A stretch of 35,696 nucleotides of DNA from Oceanicoccus sp. (GTDB lineage: Bacteria > Patescibacteriota > Gracilibacteria > UBA1369 > 2-02-FULL-48-14): the NCBI GenBank assembly GCA_047635955.1, contig JBLIGW010000003.1, forward strand, positions 1-35,696. The letters run 5' to 3'. Each line of letters starts with the position of its first letter. Position 1 is the stretch's first letter. Below the pieces are notes generated by a model that was not told the DNA's origin, searched no databases, and was given only the letters and a program-made list of their open reading frames with translations. Of this stretch, positions 2,649 through 35,696 are shown piece after piece. The position numbers and the translations under genes were made by a program.

Positions 2649-3706
2649 TATTCAGTTAGATTAGCGATAAGTTCTGGATCATGAGCACGAGAAAGCATAT
2701 CCCCTTCAGAGATTATATTCCGCTTATACAGGTCAGCCAAAGAAGAATCTAAAGTCAACATTCCATCTTCTCGTCCAATTTGCATCATTGAGTAAATTTG
2801 ATGTGTATTTCCTTCTTTAATACAGTTAGTAATCGCATCGTTTCGAACCAAGACCTCAATAGCCAAAACTCGTCCTGACTTATCTGCTTTTGGAATCAGC
2901 CGTTGTGAGGCCACCCCAAGCAAAGTAGTAGAAAGTTGAGTTCGCACTTGTGACTGTTGATGAGGTGGGAAAACGTCAATCATTCGATCAACCGTTTGCG
3001 CCGCATCTTGCGTATGAAGAGTAGCCAAAACCAAATGTCCCGTTTCAGCCAAAGTAATCGCTGCTGAAATAGTTTCTAGATCACGCATTTCTCCAACCAA
3101 AATCACATCAGGATCTTGACGAAGCGCCGCTCTAATTGCATTCGGAAAAGATTTACTGTGTTGACCCACTTCTCGCTGGGTAACTAAAGCCATTTTTGAG
3201 TTGTGAACAAATTCAATTGGATCTTCAACCGTAATAATATGAGCACGTCGAGTATTATTGATTTCATTCACCATAGCTGCCAAAGTAGTGGACTTACCTG
3301 ACCCAGTAGGGCCTGTAACCACAACCAATCCTTTGTATTTTTCAGTAAAAGTTTTAAGTATCGGCGGTAATCCGAGACTATCCATAGTTGGAATCTCCTC
3401 AGGAATACTTCGGAAAGCAACTGCGGTTCCATCTAATTCCATGTAAGCATTAATACGAAATCGCCCTACCCCTAGGACAGAATAAGAAGTATCCACTTCC
3501 GTGCCTTCGTGTAATTTTGCATATTTCTCTTCACCAAGCACCTGCTTCACTACCTCTTCCATCACGGTCTCCGTGAGCTTTTCTGCATTTTGCATTTCAT
3601 ACAGATCACCATTAGACAAACGAACCACAGGGACCTTCCCCACTTTCAAATGCAAATCTGGTGATTTACTATTTACGACTTCTTTTAAGTAATTATTAAT
3701 ATCCAT
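2648..3706 (-). CDS. pilT: Type IV pilus retraction ATPase PilT
   Basis: Walker A GPTGSGKST, TVEDPIE, AIRAALRQDPDVILVGEMRD, ETGHLVLATLHT. Confidence 0.95.
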   Translation of the reverse strand: MDINNYLKEVVNSKSPDLHLKVGKVPVVRLSNGDLYEMQNAEKLTETVMEEVVKQVLGEEKYAKLHEGTEVDTSYSVLGVGRFRINAYMELDGTAVAFRSIPEEIPTMDSLGLPPILKTFTEKYKGLVVVTGPTGSGKSTTLAAMVNEINNTRRAHIITVEDPIEFVHNSKMALVTQREVGQHSKSFPNAIRAALRQDPDVILVGEMRDLETISAAITLAETGHLVLATLHTQDAAQTVDRMIDVFPPHQQSQVRTQLSTTLLGVASQRLIPKADKSGRVLAIEVLVRNDAITNCIKEGNTHQIYSMMQIGREDGMLTLDSSLADLYKRNIISEGDMLSRAHDPELIANLTE

Positions 3707-3708
3707 AG

Positions 3709-4719
3709 TTATTCGTTAGTTGGGGTAGCAGTAGTAGTTGTTGTAGCAATGTCAGCGCCCTTAACAGGGATGCTTTCAAGTTGTTTCATATAGTTTTCAT
3801 AAGCGGCTGCTTCTGCTGGATCCATTCCTGGAGTCAAACCAAGAGAAGCTATAGCGTCAGCCACAGGCACTCCTTGGCGAACCAAAGTAGCGGCTACCAG
3901 CTTAGGGTCATACCAAACGGCCTGCCCTCTGTTGTAAAGATTTCCAAGATTATCCAAAGACACCAAATCGATCTCAGCTCCTTTCATAGGAACACCAGAA
4001 GGAGCAAGCACCAAACGAATCTCATTCGATCCCATTGCTGCAGCAATCCCTGTCTCTCCAGGACTCATCACGTTCACATCAAGACCCGACAGTTCAATAA
4101 CCTGTCGCATCAAAGTAATAGACCGATCCTCACCATCCATTTTTCTTTCAGGAATAACCACGGTGGTCCCCTTAGGCCATTGCATCTTAATCATATCTTG
4201 AACAATTTCTGTGTTCACCTCAGTCGAGTCATCCATCCCATTAATAAATTCCATTATTGACTGCCCTTTTCCAAGCATTTTTTGCAGTGCTACATCTCCT
4301 CTCATAATCACATTCTTATTTTCAGTTGTCGTAATCAAAGCTTTATTTCGCTCAATAAAGTCATCAAAATCAGGTGCAAGCACCTCCACTTGTTTATCTG
4401 TCACAGCAAGATCTGAATCTGAAAGTGCGCCAAAAATAGTTTCCCCTACCATCGCCTTAAAATAAATTCCCATTCTATCCTGCCACACGGTTGTTTGTCT
4501 CCATGCTGCAAGATCAATAGTTCCTTCAGCCGTTATAAAATCCGATTCAATTCCGTTCCCTTTAATTAAAGTTTCACGCAATGCTTCTCGAACACCTGGC
4601 AGGTCTAAAACTGAATCCTCAATACCTCCTTCTGCAAAAATAGACAAAGGATTAAAAGCTTCTACTCCAGAAGCCTCACCTTCTGGCCGACTTGGCAATG
4701 ATGGAGGGGTATTAGTCAT
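3709..4719 (-). CDS. Hypothetical protein in the pilT operon
   Basis: 336-aa ORF, ends 2 nt before pilT and overlaps the upstream gene; no recognised motif. Confidence 0.75.
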   Translation of the reverse strand: MTNTPPSLPSRPEGEASGVEAFNPLSIFAEGGIEDSVLDLPGVREALRETLIKGNGIESDFITAEGTIDLAAWRQTTVWQDRMGIYFKAMVGETIFGALSDSDLAVTDKQVEVLAPDFDDFIERNKALITTTENKNVIMRGDVALQKMLGKGQSIMEFINGMDDSTEVNTEIVQDMIKMQWPKGTTVVIPERKMDGEDRSITLMRQVIELSGLDVNVMSPGETGIAAAMGSNEIRLVLAPSGVPMKGAEIDLVSLDNLGNLYNRGQAVWYDPKLVAATLVRQGVPVADAIASLGLTPGMDPAEAAAYENYMKQLESIPVKGADIATTTTTATPTNE

Positions 4720-5020
4720 TCTTTTTTGCGTTCTTAGTTATTTCCTCCATTCGGATACTCAAACGTTCCAAACGTTGAAGTCTTCGAGTTGAATTAATTT
4801 GATGCTGACGAAGCCTTTTTTTCTCAATTGCTTCATAACCTTCTTTCTCCTCTTTCAAGGCAAAAACAAGTTCATCCAGCTTTTTCTCATCCAAATCTGA
4901 CAAAACTCCCAACCATTGAGATTCAGAAAGCGCAAGAACGTTTTGCATAGCCTCACTTTGACTGGCAAGGTGAGCCACGTTTTCTAGTTTTTGAACAAAT
5001 TTTTTGTCCGAATTTGGCAT
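4712..5020 (-). CDS. Small hypothetical coiled-coil protein
   Basis: Track ORF 4712..5050; ATG 5020 preferred because the TTG at 5050 overlaps the -10 box. Confidence 0.7.
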   Translation of the reverse strand: MPNSDKKFVQKLENVAHLASQSEAMQNVLALSESQWLGVLSDLDEKKLDELVFALKEEKEGYEAIEKKRLRQHQINSTRRLQRLERLSIRMEEITKNAKKND

Positions 5021-5049
5021 GTACTTAGATTTTTTAAAATCTTCATACA

Positions 5050-5078
5050 ATTATAGCAAATTTCAGGTTAAATTTCAA
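5050..5078 (-). promoter_or_regulatory. Sigma70 promoter for the hypothetical-hypothetical-pilT-cNMP operon
   Basis: TTGAAA-N17-TATAAT with extended -10 TG. Confidence 0.75.
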
Positions 5079-5081
5079 GTT

Positions 5082-6716
<1,635 letters not shown>

Positions 6717-10644: not shown

Positions 10645-12702
10645 ATGGAACGGAATGAAGCCTCTAGACCAGAATACGAAGAAGATCAGTCTCAAATGAG
10701 TAAATCTGAGATTCATAAAACACGCATCAAAGGTGAAGCCCTTTATTCAAACATGCCCTCAGAAGAAGCAATCAAAGAGCGTGATGAGATTGTTGAACTA
10801 CTAGAAAGATACGACCGAGCCGTTCCTGGAGTCAACACCAAGGATTTTCGTAAAGAACTAAAACAAACAGGAAACAAACCTGCTGCACTTAATAAGCTCA
10901 AAAAGAAATTAGACCGCGTTGCCAACAATGAATGGCGGCGGCGAGCTGAAAATCACGAAGCCTACAACGCACCAGGTAAATTAGGACGCAAACTTAAATC
11001 TGAGATGATGAACCTTTGGAAGTCTTTCAAGGGACAAGACCTACTCAAAGGTGATTACAACAAATTCGAACTGCTCACTACGATGGATGAGACTTTGAAA
11101 GCCAAAGCTGAATTTGTTAAGCGTTACAAAAAACAATCACCCCTTGTAAGGAAGCTATACGAACAATCCATGGGAGAACTCGACTTCACAGGCAGCAAAG
11201 AAAAGCTTTTGGATAAAGTTCTTAAAATTGTTGGTGACCTCGAACACTCCCCACAGGCTATTCAAAAGGAGTTTAAAGAAAGAGCAAAGAAAATTCATGA
11301 TTCAGACAAACTTAAAGTCATGAAGGGACAACTCATCAAAGAATATGGTGAAATGGATACCAACTACGAAGCAAAAATCAGAAAAAATGAAGAATACTTT
11401 GGAGGTGAAACCGCTGACGAATTCATACAATGGTTTGGTGAACAAAAAACCTTTGCTCAGATGAAGTCCGCACTCAAGCTACTACCCAAATACATATCTG
11501 AACGAAAAGAAGAACACATTAAGATTGAAGGCCTTCTGAAAGATCTTCCTGAGAAAAAAGTAAAACAATTTAGAGAAATTGTGAATAAGCTAGGACTCAG
11601 TGAACGAAAACGATTCAGAAAAGAAACCCTTGAACCAGCCTTTAGAAGTGGAAATGTTTCAGTCGCAGAATATGAAGGTGAACTTTTAGCTGCCCATCAA
11701 GATCGTGTTCCTCTATATACGGTTGTTGAGAAAATACGCCTCGCCGCACGATTTAAAACACTGAAACCCGCGCAGCAAAAACAAGTACTCCTTGCTGAAC
11801 GCTTAAATATTGCCAGACGATCACAAGTCATTCGGCAGTACAAACGGCTACCCTTAACGCTTCGTGATGATCTTGCCTTTTACAAAGGAAATGCAATTGA
11901 TAGAGATGAACTTTTATTCAACGCACAAGAAAAACTAGCAGAAGGAAACACTATCAACCCTTTTGCACAACTTGAAAATGATGAACATTTAGATAATAAA
12001 CAAATTCGAGACATCAGCCAGGCAATTGATAGCAATGCTGGGCAAGAAGCACTTGATGACGCCTTCCATGAAGAAGTAGGTGAACGAGATCGTAAAAACA
12101 TTTCCAACGTAATCAACCTTGCGAAATGGAAAATGGAACACGCCCTTGAAGCTAATCAAAAAAATGAAACCCAAAAAGAAACTTTCGTTCGTGACTATGA
12201 ATCTTGGAAAGTTGGTCTAAGTGAAGGAGATCACCATAAAGATGCCAAGCTTGAAGAAGACTGGCTCAAAGGAAACAAAATTCGAGAATCTCAAATGGCT
12301 GAGAACATATATGAGAAAGGCTTCACAACTCACGCCAACTCTTCCGTTCATGAACGGCAAGATCTCAAACGAAGTGATCTTGTGGACCTCAAAGGTCAAA
12401 AAATCACTGAAGCCATGTCCATGGCCGACTACGATACAGACATTCACTTGGCTGAAAATGACGAAAAAGAACCTGTAGATGTAGCCGCAATGTTAGGAGA
12501 AGTAGTTGAAGAAATTGCAGAAAAAATGGCTAAAGAAATGATCGAAGGCCTTGCAAATCGAATCAATGCGACGGGAGGAAATCGTTCTGTTTTAATCAAT
12601 AGCCTTTCCTCAGCAAGAAACATGGAAAACATTAAAGATCAATTCTGGGACAACGAAATGGGAGAACGTGGTAAAGTACTAAGGAATAAAAAAGCCGCTT
12701 AA
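10645..12702 (+). CDS. Large helical/coiled-coil hypothetical protein
   Basis: Track ORF 10561..12702; ATG 10645 preferred because the TTG lies inside a hairpin. K/E-rich, no recognised domain. Confidence 0.75.
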   Translation: MERNEASRPEYEEDQSQMSKSEIHKTRIKGEALYSNMPSEEAIKERDEIVELLERYDRAVPGVNTKDFRKELKQTGNKPAALNKLKKKLDRVANNEWRRRAENHEAYNAPGKLGRKLKSEMMNLWKSFKGQDLLKGDYNKFELLTTMDETLKAKAEFVKRYKKQSPLVRKLYEQSMGELDFTGSKEKLLDKVLKIVGDLEHSPQAIQKEFKERAKKIHDSDKLKVMKGQLIKEYGEMDTNYEAKIRKNEEYFGGETADEFIQWFGEQKTFAQMKSALKLLPKYISERKEEHIKIEGLLKDLPEKKVKQFREIVNKLGLSERKRFRKETLEPAFRSGNVSVAEYEGELLAAHQDRVPLYTVVEKIRLAARFKTLKPAQQKQVLLAERLNIARRSQVIRQYKRLPLTLRDDLAFYKGNAIDRDELLFNAQEKLAEGNTINPFAQLENDEHLDNKQIRDISQAIDSNAGQEALDDAFHEEVGERDRKNISNVINLAKWKMEHALEANQKNETQKETFVRDYESWKVGLSEGDHHKDAKLEEDWLKGNKIRESQMAENIYEKGFTTHANSSVHERQDLKRSDLVDLKGQKITEAMSMADYDTDIHLAENDEKEPVDVAAMLGEVVEEIAEKMAKEMIEGLANRINATGGNRSVLINSLSSARNMENIKDQFWDNEMGERGKVLRNKKAA

Positions 12703-27939: not shown

Positions 27940-28416
27940 CTAGAATGGTAAGTCATCAAGACTCATTTCTTCTTCTTTTTTAGGCCCAACCACTGCTGAA
28001 GGTGATGCTGCAGGTGTTGCCGAAGGTTTAACTGCTGCTGCATTAGTTTCACGATTCGCTCCAGCACCTTCTCCCGTAGGAGCTCCAGCACCATTGAGAA
28101 GGATCACATTTTCAGCAACAACTTCAGAACGGTAACGTTTAACACCATCTTCTCCTTCCCAATCACGGGTTTGCATTCGTCCTTCTACATAAATTTTTCG
28201 TCCTTTCTTCACGTATTGCTGACAAATTTCAGCCAATTTCCCCCAAACTACCACATTGTGGAAGTCTGCTTTTTCTTGTTTTTGTCCGGCCTTATCCGTC
28301 CAAACTCGGTTAGTAGCAATAGAGAAAGTAGCAACTGTTTGACCACCAGAAGTTTGTCGAACCTCAGGGTCTCGAGTCACGTTTCCAAGTAGCTGTAGTC
28401 GATTGAGTGAGTACAT
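27940..28416 (-). CDS. ssb: Single-stranded DNA-binding protein
   Basis: NRLQLLGNVTRDPE, WGKLAE, VEGRMQTR, C-terminal DDLPF. Confidence 0.98.
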   Translation of the reverse strand: MYSLNRLQLLGNVTRDPEVRQTSGGQTVATFSIATNRVWTDKAGQKQEKADFHNVVVWGKLAEICQQYVKKGRKIYVEGRMQTRDWEGEDGVKRYRSEVVAENVILLNGAGAPTGEGAGANRETNAAAVKPSATPAASPSAVVGPKKEEEMSLDDLPF

Positions 28417-28582
28417 ATGTATCGTGTTAGTGATTTAAATGACCCCTACTTTAACCGCCCTCACGGCGCTTGGGCAAGCCACTCAGAGAGAAATGACTTC
28501 CATGACTGGCCGATTGTGGTAGTCTACTGCTGTTTTCAGATATAGAGTCCAAATAAAGAGACTCAAAATAAATAAAATTACT

Positions 28583-29752
28583 GTGAAAAATTTCATATTT
28601 CAGACGGGTCACGGGAAAAGATTAGCGATAAAAGAAATCGAAGCCATATTAGGTGAAAATTCTGTGCTGGGAGAAGTTAACGACGGAGTACTTGTTGAAG
28701 CTGAAATTGAAGACGCGGTTGCCCTTATTAACACAATGGGAGGCATCGTACGGATCACCGAGGTAATTCAATCAGGCCCTAGTAGTATGCCTCTGAATTT
28801 TGAATCCTGGGTAATCCGATCACTTACTGATGCCTTTGAAGGGAAGTCTGGAAAATTCCGCTACGGTTTAAGTATCCACCCCAAATCTGACAAAATCCTG
28901 AAATCTTGTTTAATGGGAGCTAAAAAGAAACTGAAACCAATACTGGGAAACCTTAGGTTTGTGAACAAAGATTTCAACAATCTTTCTTCCGTTCAAGCCT
29001 GGCATGAAGGACTCTTAAAGGAAAAATGCATTGAACTACAACTCTTTGAAGGAGAAGATAAGTGGTTCATGTGTAAAACACTCGCAATCCAAGACTTCGG
29101 TTGGTACTCAACTCGTGATTACGACCGTCCTGCTAAATGTGCAAAGAATGGAATGTTCCCACCTAAATTGGCTCAAATACTGATCAACCTTTCAGGAACT
29201 AAAACTCATGTCTTTGACCCTTTCTGTGGAAGCGGAACGGTTATTCAAGAGTCCCTGCTGCGTGGACTAAATGCCACCGGTTCAGACCTTATAGGTGAAA
29301 TGGTTTCAGACAGTAGAGAAAACCTCGAATGGCTCGCAAAAAAAACAGGTAAAACTTTGGAATACGCTCTATTCCGAGCGGATGCCACTCGACTCACCAA
29401 ACAAGAACTACCTGCAGAACCATTTGCGATCGTAACCGAAACTTGGCTAGGACCACGGCTGAGTAAACCTCCAACTGAACTAGAACTACAAAAAATTCAA
29501 AGAGAAATTGAAGACCTTTATGAAGCCTTTTTCGACAATCTAAAACGAATTGTCCAGTCTCCAACTATTGTTGTATTCACAGCTCCTTACCATAAGGACC
29601 AGAACCTACGACACTTCCTTCCCAACTTGCCTGAAATCTTGGCACGATACACTAAGATTATTCCAATTTCAGATCACGAACGACCATCCATGTTCTACGA
29701 ACGAAAGAACCAACTTGTGAGCCGTGAAATTTGGAAAGTCATGGTAGGCTAA
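28583..29752 (+). CDS. TRM11-like (UPF0020) SAM-dependent RNA methyltransferase
   Basis: GMFPPKLAQILINL, DPFCGSGT, GSD, DAT. Confidence 0.85.
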   Translation: MKNFIFQTGHGKRLAIKEIEAILGENSVLGEVNDGVLVEAEIEDAVALINTMGGIVRITEVIQSGPSSMPLNFESWVIRSLTDAFEGKSGKFRYGLSIHPKSDKILKSCLMGAKKKLKPILGNLRFVNKDFNNLSSVQAWHEGLLKEKCIELQLFEGEDKWFMCKTLAIQDFGWYSTRDYDRPAKCAKNGMFPPKLAQILINLSGTKTHVFDPFCGSGTVIQESLLRGLNATGSDLIGEMVSDSRENLEWLAKKTGKTLEYALFRADATRLTKQELPAEPFAIVTETWLGPRLSKPPTELELQKIQREIEDLYEAFFDNLKRIVQSPTIVVFTAPYHKDQNLRHFLPNLPEILARYTKIIPISDHERPSMFYERKNQLVSREIWKVMVG

Positions 29753-30552
29753 CGAAGTGCATTGATGATAGTTTTAGCTTTCACACCTAGGACAAACATT
29801 CTCTGCTCATTCTCAAGCATCTTCATTTCAAAGATTTCTGAAGGAAAGGCATTAGATATTTTTGTAGCATCCGCTTGGCTCATGGAAGCAGTTTTTTTGA
29901 ATTGAGCTAGTTTTTCAAAAAAGGATTCTAGCCTTTCAGACAGATCCCTAGATGAATACATCTTAAAGATTAAAGAAATTAACTGCTGAGTTCGAACATT
30001 TCTCGATTCACACATAGCTTTGACTCTTGCTGGGATTACAGCAGTATTCAATGACTGCTTCTTGTCCGTAAAAAAAGTGCTACCCGTTGCATCTTTCAAC
30101 CTGAAAAATGACACATTATAAGCCGCTACAGTCACATCCCTAGCAACACATTCAGTGATCATACTCGCCCCCTCTTTGCCAGTAATATGATTAGGGTATT
30201 TAAAGATATAAATTGCTAAAACACAAACAAGCAATGACGTACTGCCTGCAATACACGAATTATAGTCAAACAAACATACCTGAGCTAACAATAGTGCATC
30301 CTCAATAGAAGTAACTTCAATGGGCCATTCAGGGTCAACAGGAATAGGTGGCTCATAACCAAATAAATTGACTTCTTCTTTATTTAAAGACTGGGAAATC
30401 ATGCTCTGAAGATCAGCAATAGCAAGCTTAACACCCCCATCTGAGTCTAAAGCAAGCCTATCCTCATGAGATAACGCTTGTAACCTTGCAATAATAGCTT
30501 CAACCTCAGAAAGGACTATACCCCCCTCACAATCATCTAATTCAATATTCAT
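29749..30552 (-). CDS. Hypothetical protein
   Basis: 267-aa ORF, convergent overlap with the methyltransferase; no motif recognised. Confidence 0.7.
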
Positions 30553-30620
30553 CTTCCTTGGGCAAAAGAACGGACTATCCGCCTAAGTTCGAGTTTTGTC
30601 AACTATGCTATAGTAAAGAC

Positions 30621-30992
30621 ATGAAAGAACTAAGCCCAGAACAACACCGAGTACTTCGTGAAAAAGGAACCGAAGCTCCTTTTAGTGGAGAATTCTACAA
30701 ACACGACGAAGTTGGCAATTATAGCTGCGCCGGATGTGGGAATTTACTATTCCACTCAGACACAAAATTTGAATCTGGTAGTGGATGGCCAAGCTTTTAT
30801 GATGCCATCGATAAATCAGCCGTTAAGCTCATTGATGACAAAAGCCACGGAATGACCCGAACCGAAGTCGTCTGCGCTAAATGTGACGGACACTTAGGTC
30901 ACGTTTTCCCCGATGGCCCCACCCCGACCGGACAACGTTACTGCATTAATTCTGCTTCACTGGGTTTTTCAGGAGACCAGTCTAGGACTTAA
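30621..30992 (+). CDS. msrB: Peptide methionine (R)-sulfoxide reductase
   Basis: GTEAPF, CxxC pairs, GSGWPSF, HLGHVF, RYCINS. Start moved to ATG 30621, leaderless context. Confidence 0.96.
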
Positions 30993-31097: not shown

Positions 31098-31172
31098 TCC
31101 CCTGTAGCTCAGTGGTAGAGCAATTGACTGTTAATCAATGGGTCATTGGTTCGAATCCAATCGGGGGAGCCA
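31098..31172 (+). tRNA. tRNA-Asn (GTT)
   Basis: Acceptor TCCCCTG/CGGGGGA, D-arm GCTC/GAGC, anticodon stem ATTGA-CT GTT AA-TCAAT, T-loop GGTTCGAATCC, encoded CCA. Confidence 0.98.
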
Positions 31173-31269
31173 ACTTCTTTTTCAGGTTACTCATAAATCA
31201 AACTACGTCTTAGAAAACCACTAAACCTCAGACCCTTGATTGAATCCCAGAATATGCTATAGTTGAAGT

Positions 31270-32493
31270 ATGAATCTTAAAACACTACTACTAGCTGGAG
31301 TAATAGCGTGCAACAGTCCTCAACCGACTGACGCACCTTTATCAGAACAAATTGAAGTCCCACAAGCAGCTCCACTTTCCTTTACACTTGGAGGTGTCAC
31401 TTTTGATATGGGCACAGAATCTGGAATGAATTCCGACCAAAGAAAAGAATTGATTGAAAAAGCAACTTCTGCCTACGAAAAGCTTCTCGAGCATTTTGGC
31501 ACTGAGCTAATGAGCTCACTTTACGTAAAGACAGTCAAAGTGCAAAAAGTCGAATCTAACTCTTTCAAAGCAAGAATCAACCCTCAACCCTGTAATTACA
31601 AACTTGAATTTGTAAATGAGCAATTAGTGCTTTCTATTCCTGACTCAGAACAACAAGAGCTAAAAACTTCAACTTCAAACACTTTATATGTAAACATTCT
31701 TGAAGAGGAAACTCTGCTCCATGAATTCATACATCTTTTTTTACAAGGAGGAGAAATGACCTCATTTGCATTCATGGAAGGACTAGCTCATGGCTTAACC
31801 TACCACCTCTACCCTGATAGTCATGAAGTACATGGTGAAGTAGTGGAAAGCCTTCAAAAACATCAAAACGCATGTATTAATGATGCATTCAAAAATGGGT
31901 GGGACACAAATGAATTAGACTCACAAGTATTTGAGGGCGGTGTTCAAGGTGGAATGGCATCAAGATTTTTAAGACCCTATTGGGGCTACAAATGGGCTGA
32001 ATTCTTTGAACAACACCCTAAGTTCATCACAGCCTTTTTCCGTAAACTCAGAGAAAAACGCGAACAGGGAACTATAGCCTTCACAAAAGAGCAGATCATT
32101 GAAATAGCAAGCGACGTTGAACCAGAATTTCAAGAGTGGATGTCAAACGAAGGAAGTTCTATTCAAGATCTTGAAACTCAAGAACGTGTCTTCGCAACAA
32201 AAATGGGAGAAAATATTTGGTTATTTAACTTTTCTACCACAGCAGCACAATCTGTTCTTGATGCTCAACCTCCTTGGAAAGGTGGACACATAAGTACTGC
32301 AGGGGTCTTGCAAATTCACAACAATGTAAACGGAAATGATGGCTATATCACAGGCAACCCAAGCTTTGGCTCATTAAATATGTCAGAAGATCCAGGACCA
32401 ACAACTTATGAAGTCAGAATTGGAAGAGATGGATCGATAACAAGCGTACCTTTCATGCTTGATGTAGATGGAAAATGCATGGAGCTTAATTAA
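31270..32493 (+). CDS. Lipoprotein with gluzincin-type metallopeptidase motif (cassette 1)
   Basis: Lipobox VIAC; LLHEFIH followed by downstream FMEGLA. Confidence 0.7.
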   Translation: MNLKTLLLAGVIACNSPQPTDAPLSEQIEVPQAAPLSFTLGGVTFDMGTESGMNSDQRKELIEKATSAYEKLLEHFGTELMSSLYVKTVKVQKVESNSFKARINPQPCNYKLEFVNEQLVLSIPDSEQQELKTSTSNTLYVNILEEETLLHEFIHLFLQGGEMTSFAFMEGLAHGLTYHLYPDSHEVHGEVVESLQKHQNACINDAFKNGWDTNELDSQVFEGGVQGGMASRFLRPYWGYKWAEFFEQHPKFITAFFRKLREKREQGTIAFTKEQIIEIASDVEPEFQEWMSNEGSSIQDLETQERVFATKMGENIWLFNFSTTAAQSVLDAQPPWKGGHISTAGVLQIHNNVNGNDGYITGNPSFGSLNMSEDPGPTTYEVRIGRDGSITSVPFMLDVDGKCMELN

Positions 32494-32526
32494 AACAGTT
32501 ATAATTGCGTCCAACTTGGGGAGCCA
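32493..32526 (+). repeat. att-like junction 2
   Basis: AAACAGTT-N17-GGGGAGCCA directly after the stop codon of cassette 1. Confidence 0.75.
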
Positions 32527-32660
32527 ATACTATTGTGTGTCGTATCAACTCCAACACCACATTCTCAACCTCTAATTAACAGGGAAGGTTTGTTAAATCT
32601 CGGTGAGCATCTTAACCTGATGTTGGGGTCGTAAAGCTAGTTAAGTGTGATATATAAGCT

Positions 32661-32756
32661 TTGGTTCGTATCTATCCTGGGGAGCCATACTTTTTTACAG
32701 GTTAAAAACACCCCCAAAACCGCCTACCCCTAACTGGAATGCGAAACTTTTTGCTA
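32661..32756 (+). repeat. att-like junction 3: degenerate tRNA 3' copy plus 78-bp conserved extension
   Basis: 32661-32687 matches tRNA 31146-31172 at 22/27; 32679-32756 is homologous to 35290-35371. Confidence 0.85.
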
Positions 32757-33380
32757 TTCAACTAAAATCACCTCACCATCCCTCAAAGGTTTGTAAGGGA
32801 TATTATTCTCTACACAATATTGGATTTCCTTATCAATATCTGCAGATTCAGGATGATCAGAATCATAATGTGGCAAGAAGGCATAATCAATTATGCCCAA
32901 ACCGTCCCATATGGTTTCAACACAATCTGTATATGGAAAATCATTCGGTTCATCCACAATATCCAATCCCTTCAACGAAGGTGAAAGAATACAAGCTCCA
33001 GCACTAAAAGCTCCATACACAAAATCATCTCTTTCACTTAAATCTTGAATAAGTTCGTCAAAACCAGACAGATACATAGCCTGCCGAAGCACAAAAGTAT
33101 TACCTCCACTTACCCAGAGCATATCCAGTTGATCTAGTTTTTCCTTTAATTCTGCTTTTTTACCAAAGTATTCTTTAAAATCTAGTAATTCTGGAGTGAA
33201 TCCTAAGCCCTTAAGACCTTCAAAAGCCAAGTCTCTATGGAATTTAACTTTCTCTGGATCAGCAAATGTAAAATCTAATGCATTCGGAACATAACCCACA
33301 CGTTTTTTTGTCTGTGCAAGCCATCGTTGTAGCGTTTCAGTTTCGTTCCCTAGTTTATAAGAAGATAAATAAAGCTTCAT
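32754..33380 (-). CDS. Peptidase E (S51) / class I glutamine amidotransferase-like protein (cassette 3)
   Basis: VSGGNTFVL, YGAFSAGA nucleophile, GLG...PHY. Confidence 0.88.
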   Translation of the reverse strand: MKLYLSSYKLGNETETLQRWLAQTKKRVGYVPNALDFTFADPEKVKFHRDLAFEGLKGLGFTPELLDFKEYFGKKAELKEKLDQLDMLWVSGGNTFVLRQAMYLSGFDELIQDLSERDDFVYGAFSAGACILSPSLKGLDIVDEPNDFPYTDCVETIWDGLGIIDYAFLPHYDSDHPESADIDKEIQYCVENNIPYKPLRDGEVILVE

Positions 33381-33423
33381 AGTTGAATAAAAGGTTGATA
33401 CTCAAATTCTACCATCTCCTCAC

Positions 33424-33459
33424 AAACAGTTCGAACTTCGTCCAGTATGGGGAGACCCA
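33424..33459 (+). repeat. att-like junction 4
   Basis: 33424-33454 matches 35265-35295 at 29/31; core variant GGGGAGACCCA. Confidence 0.85.
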
Positions 33460-33602
33460 TTCACGTTTGAAGTGCACCACCTAAGGATAGAGGCTAGGCA
33501 GCATGAAAACACACATATATATATTATGTTAAAGCAGAGCGGCTGGAACTCTACAACTTAACGGGCATTGACAAGTGCAAATTAATATGTTTTTATATCT
33601 AC

Positions 33603-34259
33603 ATGAGACACCAAATTTTAAGATCAAATGCTCAATTTAATGATGAGACAGACTTAATCAACTTAGTTGAAGAGGAAGGTTTTCAGGAATGGCTACTGAT
33701 AAAAGCAACAAACGATGGCTTAACTCTTTATAATAGAGAGGCTAATGATCAGCCATTTGATTGGTCGGAGACAGACCAGCAAATAAAAGTAAGCGTTCAA
33801 CAGTTTTGTTCAACAGTACATACATGGATCATTGAAGCATTTAATGAAATTTTTCAAAGTAAGCCTGAGTACCGAAGTTTAGAATTAGACCACTTTGACG
33901 TGAACTTTCTCCCATATATTGATGCATCTGACCACGAACCTGCTCCCTACACCTTTGACCACTGGCATAGAGATTCGTACAAGGAAGGAGTGTTTATGCA
34001 TTTCACCATTGGCACAAGCCAGTGTTTTACAGAAGTGATACCAGTAAATGTACAAGCAAATGAAGCTGAAGAAGTTGACGGTGAATGGTTGTTCCACGAA
34101 AGAATCAATAGTCAGGTTTCAAATGGGCAATTAGAAAAGCAGGAAGTCCCACATGGTTATGCCATTGCACTTACAATGAAGGATGTCGAAATGATCCATA
34201 GAAGAGGGGCAATACAAACAAACGGGTCAAGAATTGCAGTTAGAGTTTATTTTAAGTAA
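33603..34259 (+). CDS. Putative 2OG-Fe(II) oxygenase-like protein (cassette 4)
   Basis: WHRD (HxD), distal IHRR and terminal R in SRIAVRVYF fit a DSBH facial triad; family not certain. Confidence 0.55.
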   Translation: MRHQILRSNAQFNDETDLINLVEEEGFQEWLLIKATNDGLTLYNREANDQPFDWSETDQQIKVSVQQFCSTVHTWIIEAFNEIFQSKPEYRSLELDHFDVNFLPYIDASDHEPAPYTFDHWHRDSYKEGVFMHFTIGTSQCFTEVIPVNVQANEAEEVDGEWLFHERINSQVSNGQLEKQEVPHGYAIALTMKDVEMIHRRGAIQTNGSRIAVRVYFK

Positions 34260-34407
34260 AATGAACTTCATGCACATTGTGCACTTCCCCAAAACAGAGG
34301 GTTAGGTTGAGAGGCAAAATTGCTCACTTTCAAAGTTATAAGAAACTATGTAATGATAAGGATATGATTCCTATCACCTAGATCAAAGCTTTCAAACAAC
34401 ATTCTGT

Positions 34408-34438
34408 ACGGCAACCCAGCTGGGTTGCCGTTTAGTTT
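34408..34438 (+). terminator. Perfect 24-bp palindrome, probable terminator
   Basis: ACGGCAACCCAG-CTGGGTTGCCGT followed by TTAGTTT. Confidence 0.65.
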
Positions 34439-34509
34439 CCAAGCTTAAAAGAAAATGAATTTAAAAAAATCTGAGATCCCCCCTCTTAAGCGAGTTGAAA
34501 ACCTCACGT

Positions 34510-34556
34510 AGTTCGGAAAAGAAACAGAGTGGGGAGCCAGTATTATCTTCAGGTTA
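34510..34556 (+). repeat. att-like junction 5
   Basis: AGTTCG...(AGTT-N17)-GGGGAGCCA-N10-CAGGTTA. Confidence 0.8.
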
Positions 34557-34608
34557 AACTTGATCACCCTATCTTCAAAAATAGGCTTATTTATGGTATG
34601 ATTAAGAG

Positions 34609-35262
34609 ATGGCAATAGAAAACACACAAACCGAATGGGAAGAAAGCCTACATCGTAGTCAATCTACGCTGGATTCAGTTGACCCTGAGCAATTGCACGA
34701 AGGACCAGCTTTTGAAGCTCAAACCAAGCAAGGTGAAAAGCTCAACGTTACTACCCGATTCTACTACTTTAAAGGAATGGATTTTTCTCCGAGCGATACA
34801 CTAAAAAATGGCTTACGCCTTTACATGTTTGCTAGAGATGAAACAGGCCAAATCGTAGGAACAAGAGTCGCATCTATCTTTCAACTTAATCCAAAGACAC
34901 TTGAATGCAAAAGTAAAATTATCGTTAGAGACAAAGGTCAGGGCTTAGCATCCCCCATTGAAGAAACTTTCATCCAAACATTGCAGCACATTGCAAATAC
35001 AGAAAATAAACGCGTCATTTGGAAGGTCGAAAACCAAAATCTTGAAAAACTAGAAGCATATCGAGCTCAAGACTCAAACGATCCACTAAAGTTAGCTGGA
35101 ATGGAGGCTGAGCAAGAACGATGGCAATACTTATATGGAGAAAATGGTAAATTTGGCATCTCAAGAAATCGAAGGATCTTTATGCCAACAAAAAACGTAG
35201 ATACACCAATAAGTGACTCTCAGACAGGTATCCACGAAAAAGTAGAATCAGCAATGAGCTAG
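34609..35262 (+). CDS. Hypothetical protein, possibly GNAT-like fold (cassette 5)
   Basis: 217-aa ORF with its own promoter; KGQGLAS resembles the acetyl-CoA-binding motif A. Confidence 0.6.
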   Translation: MAIENTQTEWEESLHRSQSTLDSVDPEQLHEGPAFEAQTKQGEKLNVTTRFYYFKGMDFSPSDTLKNGLRLYMFARDETGQIVGTRVASIFQLNPKTLECKSKIIVRDKGQGLASPIEETFIQTLQHIANTENKRVIWKVENQNLEKLEAYRAQDSNDPLKLAGMEAEQERWQYLYGENGKFGISRNRRIFMPTKNVDTPISDSQTGIHEKVESAMS

Positions 35263-35264
35263 CA

Positions 35265-35371
35265 AAATAGTTCGAACTTCGTCTAGTATGGGGAGCCAAC
35301 TTCTTTTTCAGCTTACAGATACCTCCAAAACCGCCTACCCCCCCCTAACTGGAATGCAAACCTTTTTGCTA
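35265..35371 (+). repeat. att-like junction 6 with conserved extension
   Basis: Left arm nearly identical to junction 4; first 27 nt from the core match the tRNA end and downstream flank at 26/27; extension homologous to junction 3. Confidence 0.9.
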
Positions 35372-35374
35372 TGT

Positions 35375-35695
35375 TTAAGCTTTTGTCCATTTCATAATAT
35401 ACTCCTCACCCTCTCCTGTATCTTTGAGTTGTTTCACAAGAATTTCAAAGCCACACTTCTTATATACCGATCGAGCTGCAAGATTCTCCTCATCAACCGT
35501 GAGATAAACTTCACTATGCCCTTCTTGCTCCAAGTACTGAAGCATCAATTGAATGGCCTCCGTTCCATGCCCTTTCCCCCACTCACCCCTTTCACCAATA
35601 GCTAAACCAAGAAAGGTGTTTCCTGCATAATCATCTTCCCTTTTAGCATTAAAGTGAATACCACAGTTTCCAATCAATTTATCTCCTTCCACCTT
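35375..35695 (-). CDS. GNAT N-acetyltransferase (RimJ/RimL-like), 5'-partial (cassette 6)
   Basis: LIGNCGI, WGKGHGTEA, N.AARSVYKKCGF; frame open to the window edge. Confidence 0.9.
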   Translation of the reverse strand, partial: KVEGDKLIGNCGIHFNAKREDDYAGNTFLGLAIGERGEWGKGHGTEAIQLMLQYLEQEGHSEVYLTVDEENLAARSVYKKCGFEILVKQLKDTGEGEEYIMKWTKA

Positions 35696-35696
35696 A

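Follow-up and report, generated by a model that had tools for sequence, protein, structure and literature searches.

How does a row of short, mostly one-gene units come to lie behind a single tRNA gene, with the last nine nucleotides of that gene repeated between them? The question is raised by the DNA analysed here, a stretch of 35,696 nucleotides (the window) that is the entire contig C3 of genome G000. The window has one tRNA gene, tRNA-Asn(GTT) at 31098-31172, found by ARAGORN and confirmed by Rfam. Exact copies of its final 9 nt, GGGGAGCCA (here called the core), lie at 32518, 32679, 34531 and 35290 and a degenerate copy, GGGGAGACCCA, at 33449, all on the plus strand. Genes between the cores lie in either orientation, while every site faces the same way. 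The interval of particular interest, 34510-34556 (junction J5), is made up of AGTTCGGA (a mimic of the tRNA T-loop), 13 nt, the core GGGGAGCCA, GTATTATCTT and CAGGTTA. From its sequence and that of its relatives, we consider that this interval is probably an attachment-site junction of the large serine recombinase (LSR) type, within a tandem array of cassettes anchored at the 3′ end of tRNA-Asn.

The sites behind tRNA-Asn

Arms in which a T-loop heptamer lies 8 nt ahead of the core, as it does in the tRNA itself, are termed B-type, and those in which it lies 13 nt ahead P-type. The features of the array in the window are as follows.

31098-31172, plus strand: tRNA-Asn(GTT), predicted by ARAGORN and given 73.8 bits by the Rfam tRNA model
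31149-31155, plus strand: T-loop heptamer GTTCGAA of the tRNA, 8 nt ahead of the core (B-type arm)
31164-31172, plus strand: core at the tRNA end, GGGGAGCCA, the final 9 nt of the gene
31173-31189, plus strand: right arm of the tRNA head, of the class termed R1, ACTTCTTTTT and then CAGGTTA
31173-32526, plus strand: cassette 1, with an open reading frame (ORF) at 31270-32493 (407 amino acids, without a Pfam match), ending in J2
32497-32517 and 32518-32526, plus strand: P-type arm and core of J2
32527-32687, plus strand: ORF-free segment of 161 bp, ending in J3
32661-32678 and 32679-32687, plus strand: left arm and core of J3, the arm being B-type (heptamer 8 nt ahead)
32688-32757, plus strand: extended R1 right arm of J3, TACTTTTTTA, CAGGTTA and then a conserved tail of ~50 nt
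32688-33459, plus strand: cassette 3, with a Peptidase_S51 gene at 32754-33380 on the minus strand, ending in J4
33428-33459, plus strand: J4, whose P arm starts with AGTT at 33428 and whose core (33449-33459) is the degenerate GGGGAGACCCA
33460-34539, plus strand: cassette 4, with an ORF at 33603-34259 (218 amino acids, without a Pfam match), ending in J5
34510-34556, plus strand: J5, with its core GGGGAGCCA at 34531-34539
34540-35298, plus strand: cassette 5, with an ORF at 34609-35262 (217 amino acids, without a Pfam match), ending in J6
35269-35298, plus strand: J6, with its P arm from 35269 and its core at 35290-35298
35299-35696, plus strand: start of cassette 6, with an extended R1 arm at 35299-35372 that contains CAGCTTA
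35375-35695, minus strand: GNAT acetyltransferase gene of cassette 6, truncated by the contig end

The first-pass annotation had proposed six sites of fixed architecture, the tRNA end and J2 to J6, and all six are present. It placed AGTT 17 nt to the left of the core in J2, J4, J5 and J6. The pattern AGTT-N17-GGGGAG occurs four times in the window (32497, 33428, 34510 and 35269) where 0.08 occurrences are expected, and none of 100 shuffles reached four. CAGGTTA was placed 10 nt to the right of CCA at the tRNA, J3 and J5 (as CAGCTTA in J6), and GAGCCA-N10-CAG[G/C]TTA is found four times (31167, 32682, 34534 and 35293) with 0.00 expected. The left and right arms do assort independently, as had been suggested: J4 and J6 have left arms that agree at 94% over 31 nt, and on its right J6 matches the tRNA flank at 16 of 17 positions before tracking the extended right arm of J3 at 78-94%. 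The proposal that the left arms match the tRNA from the G-run onward also holds, with some amendment. Identity does begin at GGGGAGCCA, with two exceptions; J2 additionally shares TCCAA, and the left arm of J3 is a decayed copy of the last 27 nt of the tRNA (77%). We note that the core of J4 carries two additional bases within the shared core, which could be decay or the scar of a faulty strand exchange.

Other junctions of this kind lie on contigs C57 and C5 of genome G000, and the type-A left arm has at least six copies in this genome. Genes flanked by the junctions of C57 and C5 include those for an FTR1 permease, GNAT, a ParE toxin with its partner, a phosphoenolpyruvate-utilising enzyme, NUDIX, YibE/F, GST and TspO. 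The cargo across the arrays (the window, C57, C5 and relatives) is rich in toxin-antitoxin pairs (ParE, Phd, Fic) and GNAT acetyltransferases, and also contains an APH-type kinase, hydrolases, transporters and proteins without a Pfam family. Several cassettes open with a near-consensus promoter, TTGACA-N17-TATAAT, directly behind the core.

Arm geometry compared with serine recombinase attachment sites

The tRNA-Asn loci of 21 family genomes (23 stretches) provide 21 tRNA heads and 50 further GGGAGCCA sites, some of the latter being chance matches within genes. AGTT opens a mimic of the T-loop, GTTCKRA, that is a copy of the tRNA sequence GTTCGAA; this heptamer was scored as present when at least 6 of its 7 positions agreed. 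It lies 8 nt ahead of the core in all 21 tRNA-Asn genes. Among the 50 other sites the gap is 13 nt in 35, 12 nt in three, 14 nt in four and 8 nt in one (J3), and no site has the heptamer at gaps of 3-7, 9-11 or 15-22 nt. Conservation of spacing in additional copies was the check that had been named for the first-pass proposal, and the spacing holds.

The 35 P-type junctions, from 14 genomes, have a consensus that runs from about -27 to -1, cAaAA.AGTTCgAATTgC.TCCAAtaT, followed by the core and then TTT. AGTT is thus only one part of a longer conserved arm (-27 to -1). The 13-nt stretch between heptamer and core is of at least three unrelated sequence types, and its length is constant. Identity between the tRNA and the P arms is confined to GGGGAGCCA, i.e. 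9 bp. The pattern GTTCKRA-N13-GGGGAGCCA occurs in 16 of 301 genomes of the class, distributed over several families, and a reversed control pattern in none.

On the right-hand side most junctions diverge immediately past CCA, and a T-rich run lies behind the core in many copies. The motif C[AG]GNTTA lies precisely 10 nt past CCA at four of the 21 tRNA heads and 11 of the 50 other sites; at offsets of 4-9 or 11-18 nt it was found at no site. The 10-nt spacer of these R1 arms is T-rich and varies at up to 6-7 of its 10 positions, with no indel in the 15 sites (10 genomes). A spacer that is varied in sequence and constant in length argues for a constraint on spacing.

These distances can be compared with those of a characterized system. 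According to the parts of Rutherford et al. 2013 (PMC3783163) consulted here, the 9-bp motif read by the zinc-ribbon domain (ZD) of the A118-family integrase occupies half-site positions 16-24 of attP and 11-19 of attB, and the lengths of attP (~50 bp) and attB (~40 bp) are a consequence of this placement of the ZD. The 5-bp outward shift of the T-loop motif, from a gap of 8 nt to one of 13 nt, is the attB-versus-attP signature of LSRs. When the heptamer is fitted to the ZD windows, the central dinucleotide is predicted to fall among bases 2-5 of the core (GGAG, where the G-run ends), ~5-7 nt from the 3′ end of the tRNA. This coincides with the crossover in the G-run placed there by the first-pass annotation; the attP/attB geometry puts the centre there, and the exact point is a prediction. 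Counted from core base 1, GTTCGAA occupies -20 to -14 and CAGGTTA +19 to +25, so that a point between core bases 3 and 4 lies midway between the two. The predicted ZD window of P′ is +18 to +27, and CAGGTTA falls inside it. CAGGTTA would then be the ZD motif of P′, although it is seen in only 15 of 71 sites. The right arms of the LSR-bearing elements, compared by eye, gave no consistent P′ motif.

The likeness to the sites of the A118/LI integrase, as far as these are described in the same parts of PMC3783163, comprises a site of ~50 bp with a short central identity, an outer ZD motif that lies 5 bp farther out in the mobile partner, and (in relatives) a recombinase gene of three-domain architecture beside one end of the element. 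Unlike the sites described there, the target here is the 3′ end of a tRNA, with the universal T-loop as the outer motif. A canonical attP has two comparable half-sites, whereas the right half-site is weakly conserved here; the long tandem arrays of recombinase-less cassettes and the hosts, bacteria of the candidate phyla radiation (CPR), are further differences. The assignment to LSR-type sites rather than to those of a tyrosine integrase, made by the first-pass annotation, is supported by the 5-bp shift, by the LSRs at tRNA-Asn in relatives and by the shortness of the 9-bp identity.

A strict P-arm pattern had no match in viral contigs and matched genome contigs at three loci only, with no free attP or phage form among them. 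One exact match lies on an 8.3-kb contig, CAZYOE010000190.1 (L211), of a metagenome-assembled genome labelled Pseudobdellovibrionaceae, which could be a mis-binned contig or the result of transfer.

R1 arms often carry a conserved extension of ~60-75 nt behind CAGRTTA. Extensions of this kind are found in the window (32688-32757 and 35299-35372), on C57 and C5, and in seven relatives (G008, G012, G013, G017, G020, G023 and G024). The tail ends in an inverted T-arm-like copy, CCAAGTTGGAC.GTTCGAACTT, or CTAACTGGAATGCGAAACTT in genome G000, and exists in two length forms ~15 nt apart. No consensus fold was found for the extension (alifold -0.4), nor did a search of it reveal a remnant of an LSR gene. 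Two further interpretations of the extension were rejected. If it were a palindrome centred on CAGAT and serving as the crossover site, the P and B arms would have equal spacing; moreover most junctions diverge right past CCA. A second, 41-bp attB-like site was set aside, the form in G000 and G020 being separated from the rest by a 15-nt indel.

Recombinase genes at tRNA 3′ ends

LSR genes lie at the head of the tRNA-Asn locus in relatives. In G004 an LSR ORF of 585 amino acids overlaps the 3′ end of tRNA-Asn and is convergent with it, and the far end of the element, 6.7 kb away, is a P-type arm plus core. A second LSR, of 535 amino acids, occupies the same position at tRNA-Asn in G025. That element ends 9 kb away, in an arm that is nearly identical to the commonest arm of the window, including the preceding CTCCTCACAAA. 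A third LSR at tRNA-Asn, in G016, is partial because the contig ends. The enzymes of G004 and G025 are only 28% identical.

Of 28 family genomes, 19 have matches to Pfam Resolvase, and the open frames that contain them span 410-700 amino acids. All seven of the LSRs scanned against Pfam contain Resolvase and Recombinase, and six of the seven contain Zn_ribbon_recom. A survey of the family examined 35 places, 33 of which yielded an ORF. The LSR is convergent with a tRNA in 23 of these 33, with the 3′ end of the tRNA between -368 and +188 nt from the LSR stop codon; three others have a tRNA more than 1 kb off, and seven have none in the fetched stretch, several of them at contig ends. The tRNAs targeted are of ten specificities (Phe, Thr, Ser, Pro, Gln, Met, Gly, Glu, Trp and Asn).

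For 18 LSR loci, up to 20 kb past the LSR was checked for a repeat of the last 9 nt of the tRNA, and such a repeat was found at nine. Judged by eye, the heptamer of six of the nine lies at 13 nt, against a gap of 8 nt in the tRNAs concerned, namely Ser-tga (in three genomes), Trp, Pro-tgg and Met, the last with a weaker heptamer. Arms of the Ser type with the 13-nt gap, whose repeat is the 3′ end common to the tRNA-Ser genes, are found in at least four places in genome G000 (C32:2199, C49:2939, C49:2057 and C51:2325), and a Trp arm with the same gap, at C2:10244, is among the matches listed. Genome G000 thus has several tRNA-anchored islands of like kind.

We note that LSR frames overlap the target tRNA gene on its antisense strand by 11-110 nt (L141 3226-3289 in G004, L168 in G025 and most of the surveyed LSR loci), so that the last residues of the recombinase are encoded by the complement of the tRNA. 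The LSRs of G004 and G025 cross tRNA-Asn in two different frames.

An LSR-like gene of genome G000 lies on contig C24 (~3600-5177) beside tRNA-Pro(tgg) c[5347,5423]. Over residues 107-537 it shares 43% identity with the LSR found at tRNA-Pro in G004. It has a shortened catalytic domain and gives no match to Pfam Resolvase; from its sequence it is probably an inactivated recombinase. Short C-terminal LSR fragments lie beside tRNA-Ser genes in the same genome.

Movement of cassettes and the weighing of explanations

Comparison of all arrays against each other shows that many cassettes recur in more than one genus, at 70-92% identity and in different positions. The clearest example is a cassette carrying a ParE-like toxin-antitoxin pair, present in two genera. 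In G007 it lies directly behind the tRNA, and in G020 another P arm precedes it. The two copies are homologous (80% identity) from the position immediately past CCA, where the promoter of the cassette itself (TTGACA...TATAAT) lies, to the end of the P arm and core, and their right neighbours are unlike. By these boundaries the unit starts with a left end that bears a promoter, continues with at least one gene and closes with a P arm; they also place the exchange, as far as sequence comparison can tell, within the 9-bp core or at its edge. A contig from an unrelated sequencing run, X4, covers 32693-33454 (the Peptidase_S51 cassette) at ~96% identity with a different left junction. No excised or circular form could be demonstrated in the assembled contigs of sequencing runs, where most joints are paralogous junctions of G000.

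A number of observations weigh against the assignment to LSR sites. Conservation of the junctions is lopsided, extending from -27 to +12, and the right arm past +12 is kept in only the 15 of 71 sites that belong to R1. There is no dyad symmetry in sequence; the bottom strand of CAGGTTA (TAACCTG) agrees with GTTCGAA at one of seven positions. J3 is internal and has a B-type arm (32661-32687), which crossover within the core does not yield; this left arm could be an old tRNA end that has been displaced, or an attB, either duplicated or fossil. Pfam Resolvase has no match in genome G000 (84% complete), in which no intact LSR was found, and G018 (~98% complete) has a long array and again no Resolvase match. 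Among the nine far junctions of LSR loci three lack a clean 5-bp shift (Glu, with the heptamer at 12 nt, and Thr and Phe, with none clear), and the other nine of the 18 loci have no downstream repeat at all within the distance checked. Lastly, LSR integration is normally blocked at attL-type sites, so that repeated insertion at a tRNA head needs explaining. The enzymes may be permissive, a property ascribed to Ccr recombinases; otherwise, arms of the R1 type may regenerate a usable site.

A rival explanation is a different enzyme, a tyrosine recombinase (a host Xer-like protein, or an integron-type integrase encoded elsewhere) acting on an integron-like or dif-module-like array in which the tRNA end serves as attI. 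G000 has two Xer-like PF00589 genes and every one of the 28 family genomes has at least one, so that arrays occur wherever such an enzyme does, including G018 with its lack of a Resolvase match. The small cassettes of mostly one or two genes, their toxin-antitoxin and acetyltransferase cargo and the complex site at one end are all integron-like, and tRNA 3′ ends are classic targets of tyrosine integrases. Yet no PF00589 gene is found among the ORFs of the arrays (window, C57, C5, G004, G008, G012, G017 and G018), and the two of G000 are Xer-like and on other contigs. In islands of tyrosine integrases identity to the tRNA reaches the T-loop or anticodon loop, whereas in P-type junctions it ends at 9 nt (J3 being the exception). 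Neither a conserved hairpin of the attC type (alifold -0.4) nor, by eye, inverted core-type sites around a 6-8-bp overlap could be found, and both the 5-bp shift of the T-loop and the LSR genes at the heads of arrays are left unexplained. We regard this explanation as unlikely.

The fixed spacing might instead reflect nothing but common descent, a junction module of ~50-100 bp having been copied along with the cassettes, through homologous recombination or duplication, so that AGTT and CAGGTTA have no present function. Several junctions of G000 are near-identical, the type-A left arm with its six or more copies being an example; some junctions here and in relatives are decaying (the core of J4, G017 at 11478 and G023 at 3360), and G000 has no recombinase at hand. 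Simple copying is hard to reconcile with the R1 spacer, which diverges at up to 6-7 of 10 positions without an indel in 15 sites of 10 genomes, or with the three or more unrelated types of equal length between heptamer and core. The rule of 8 versus 13 nt also recurs at tRNA-Ser, -Trp, -Pro and -Met with unrelated sequences, and descent alone is in our view quite improbable. A role at the level of RNA, with the sites as tRNA-like 3′ tags, processing signals or terminators that close cassette transcripts, would make sense of a left arm and core that mimic the T-arm and the 3′ strand of the acceptor with its CCA, and of the T-rich run past the core. The extended right arm can moreover pair with the T-arm at tRNA heads (in a single fold of G013, -26.7 kcal/mol). 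The sites nevertheless keep the orientation of the tRNA even beside genes on the opposite strand, no 5′ acceptor strand precedes them, Rfam detects only the true tRNA (scans of the window, C57 and C5 gave no other family), and there is no conserved consensus fold. Shuffling of the cassettes and adjacency to LSRs would remain unexplained, and such a role seems to us very improbable indeed.

Under the LSR reading, each junction would consist of a P-type left arm (GTTCKRA 13 nt ahead), the 9-bp core and the left end of the next cassette, often with its own promoter, and in the R1 class with the T-rich 10-mer followed by CAGRTTA. The ZD would read the T-loop-like motif and the recombinase domain the T-stem and acceptor segment. 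A 2-bp staggered cut is envisaged in or at the end of the G-run, ~5-7 nt from the 3′ end of the tRNA, so that the incoming DNA would re-supply the tRNA end. LSRs would have moved the recombinase-less cassettes of the window, acting in trans unless the cassettes are what is left of larger LSR elements.

A more far-reaching possibility, which we put forward tentatively and think doubtful as a whole, is gene capture of an integron-like kind that is run by LSRs. Single-gene cassettes without a recombinase, each with its own promoter and one P-type half-site, would be captured and released by LSRs acting in trans at the tRNA-Asn end. The presence of R1 at tRNA heads and internal junctions could mean that every insertion restores a usable site, which would let cassettes enter and leave with no need for a directionality factor. 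The radiation of the LSRs would have kept the T-loop as outer motif and retargeted the inner half-site only, giving at least ten tRNA specificities.

Chromosomal integrons resemble the arrays in their small co-oriented cassettes, their toxin-antitoxin and acetyltransferase genes, the one complex site at the cassette end and the occurrence of the same cassette in different arrays. In contrast, the arrays have no recombinase of the IntI type beside them and no attC hairpin, their cassettes often have their own promoter and they are anchored at a tRNA. Tandem accretion at one chromosomal site is also a property of the staphylococcal cassette chromosome (SCC) at rlmH (orfX) and of cis-mobilizable elements in streptococci. 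Units there without a recombinase carry att-type repeats at their borders, and their mobility is attributed to a serine (Ccr) or other recombinase of a neighbour. The target of these elements is the end of a protein-coding gene and they are much larger, and we know of no analysis of a 5-bp difference between P and B sites for them.

Serine integrases are usually described at protein-coding genes, and tRNA genes are textbook targets of tyrosine integrases. In the family studied here LSRs adjoin the 3′ ends of tRNAs of ten specificities, and their sites appear to reuse the universal T-loop at a 5-bp offset. Such LSR/att pairs would form a naturally occurring, related set that varies in the inner half-site alone, of direct use in studying integrase specificity and perhaps in changing it. 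It would also mean that CPR genomes of ~1 Mb keep a flexible pool of toxin-antitoxin, acetyltransferase, transporter and uncharacterized genes as shuffled cassettes at one tRNA hotspot. The literature searched (supplements and subscription papers lay outside its scope) provided no description of LSRs that target tRNA T-loops, nor of recombinases of Peribacteria, and a term search of the main text of an LSR survey preprint (10.1101/2021.11.05.467528) did not return the word tRNA.

The tycheposons of Prochlorococcus, in the sections of the report used here (10.1101/2020.12.28.424599), are likewise islands of flexible genes beside tRNA genes in streamlined genomes. Successive integrations displace older elements inward, with partial tRNA copies between them and degenerate remnants. 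Tyrosine recombinases are present in 910 of 937 of these elements, and the repeats are partial tRNAs of ~40 nt. Here, by contrast, the repeats share 9 nt with the tRNA and have a shifted T-loop mimic, LSRs are found at the tRNA heads, and the units are mostly of one or two genes.

The host, a CPR bacterium of Peribacteria/Gracilibacteria-like type, uses the standard genetic code and has a genome of ~1 Mb. Its assembly G000 has 76 contigs totalling 895 kb, is 84% complete and has a G+C content of 41.6%. Code 25 was considered and dropped; rpoB is open over 1184 amino acids under code 11 (standard), and a comparison of ORF lengths between the codes did not discriminate. The flank upstream of tRNA-Asn (27940-30992) is a conserved chromosomal block and carries the following genes.

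27940-28416, minus strand: SSB
28583-29752: UPF0020 methyltransferase
29749-30552, minus strand: ORF of 267 amino acids
30558-30992: MsrB

The MsrB sequence varies too little to indicate the lineage of the host. The best relatives of the methyltransferase gene carry the labels Candidatus Gracilibacteria (69%) and Candidatus Peribacteria (55%), and the gene order of SSB, methyltransferase and tRNA-Asn recurs in relatives. In two relatives the tRNA-Asn gene is split in the anticodon region by an insert of ~500-540 nt (G026:C16:15647-16228 and G007:C35:7472-8087), which may be an intron.

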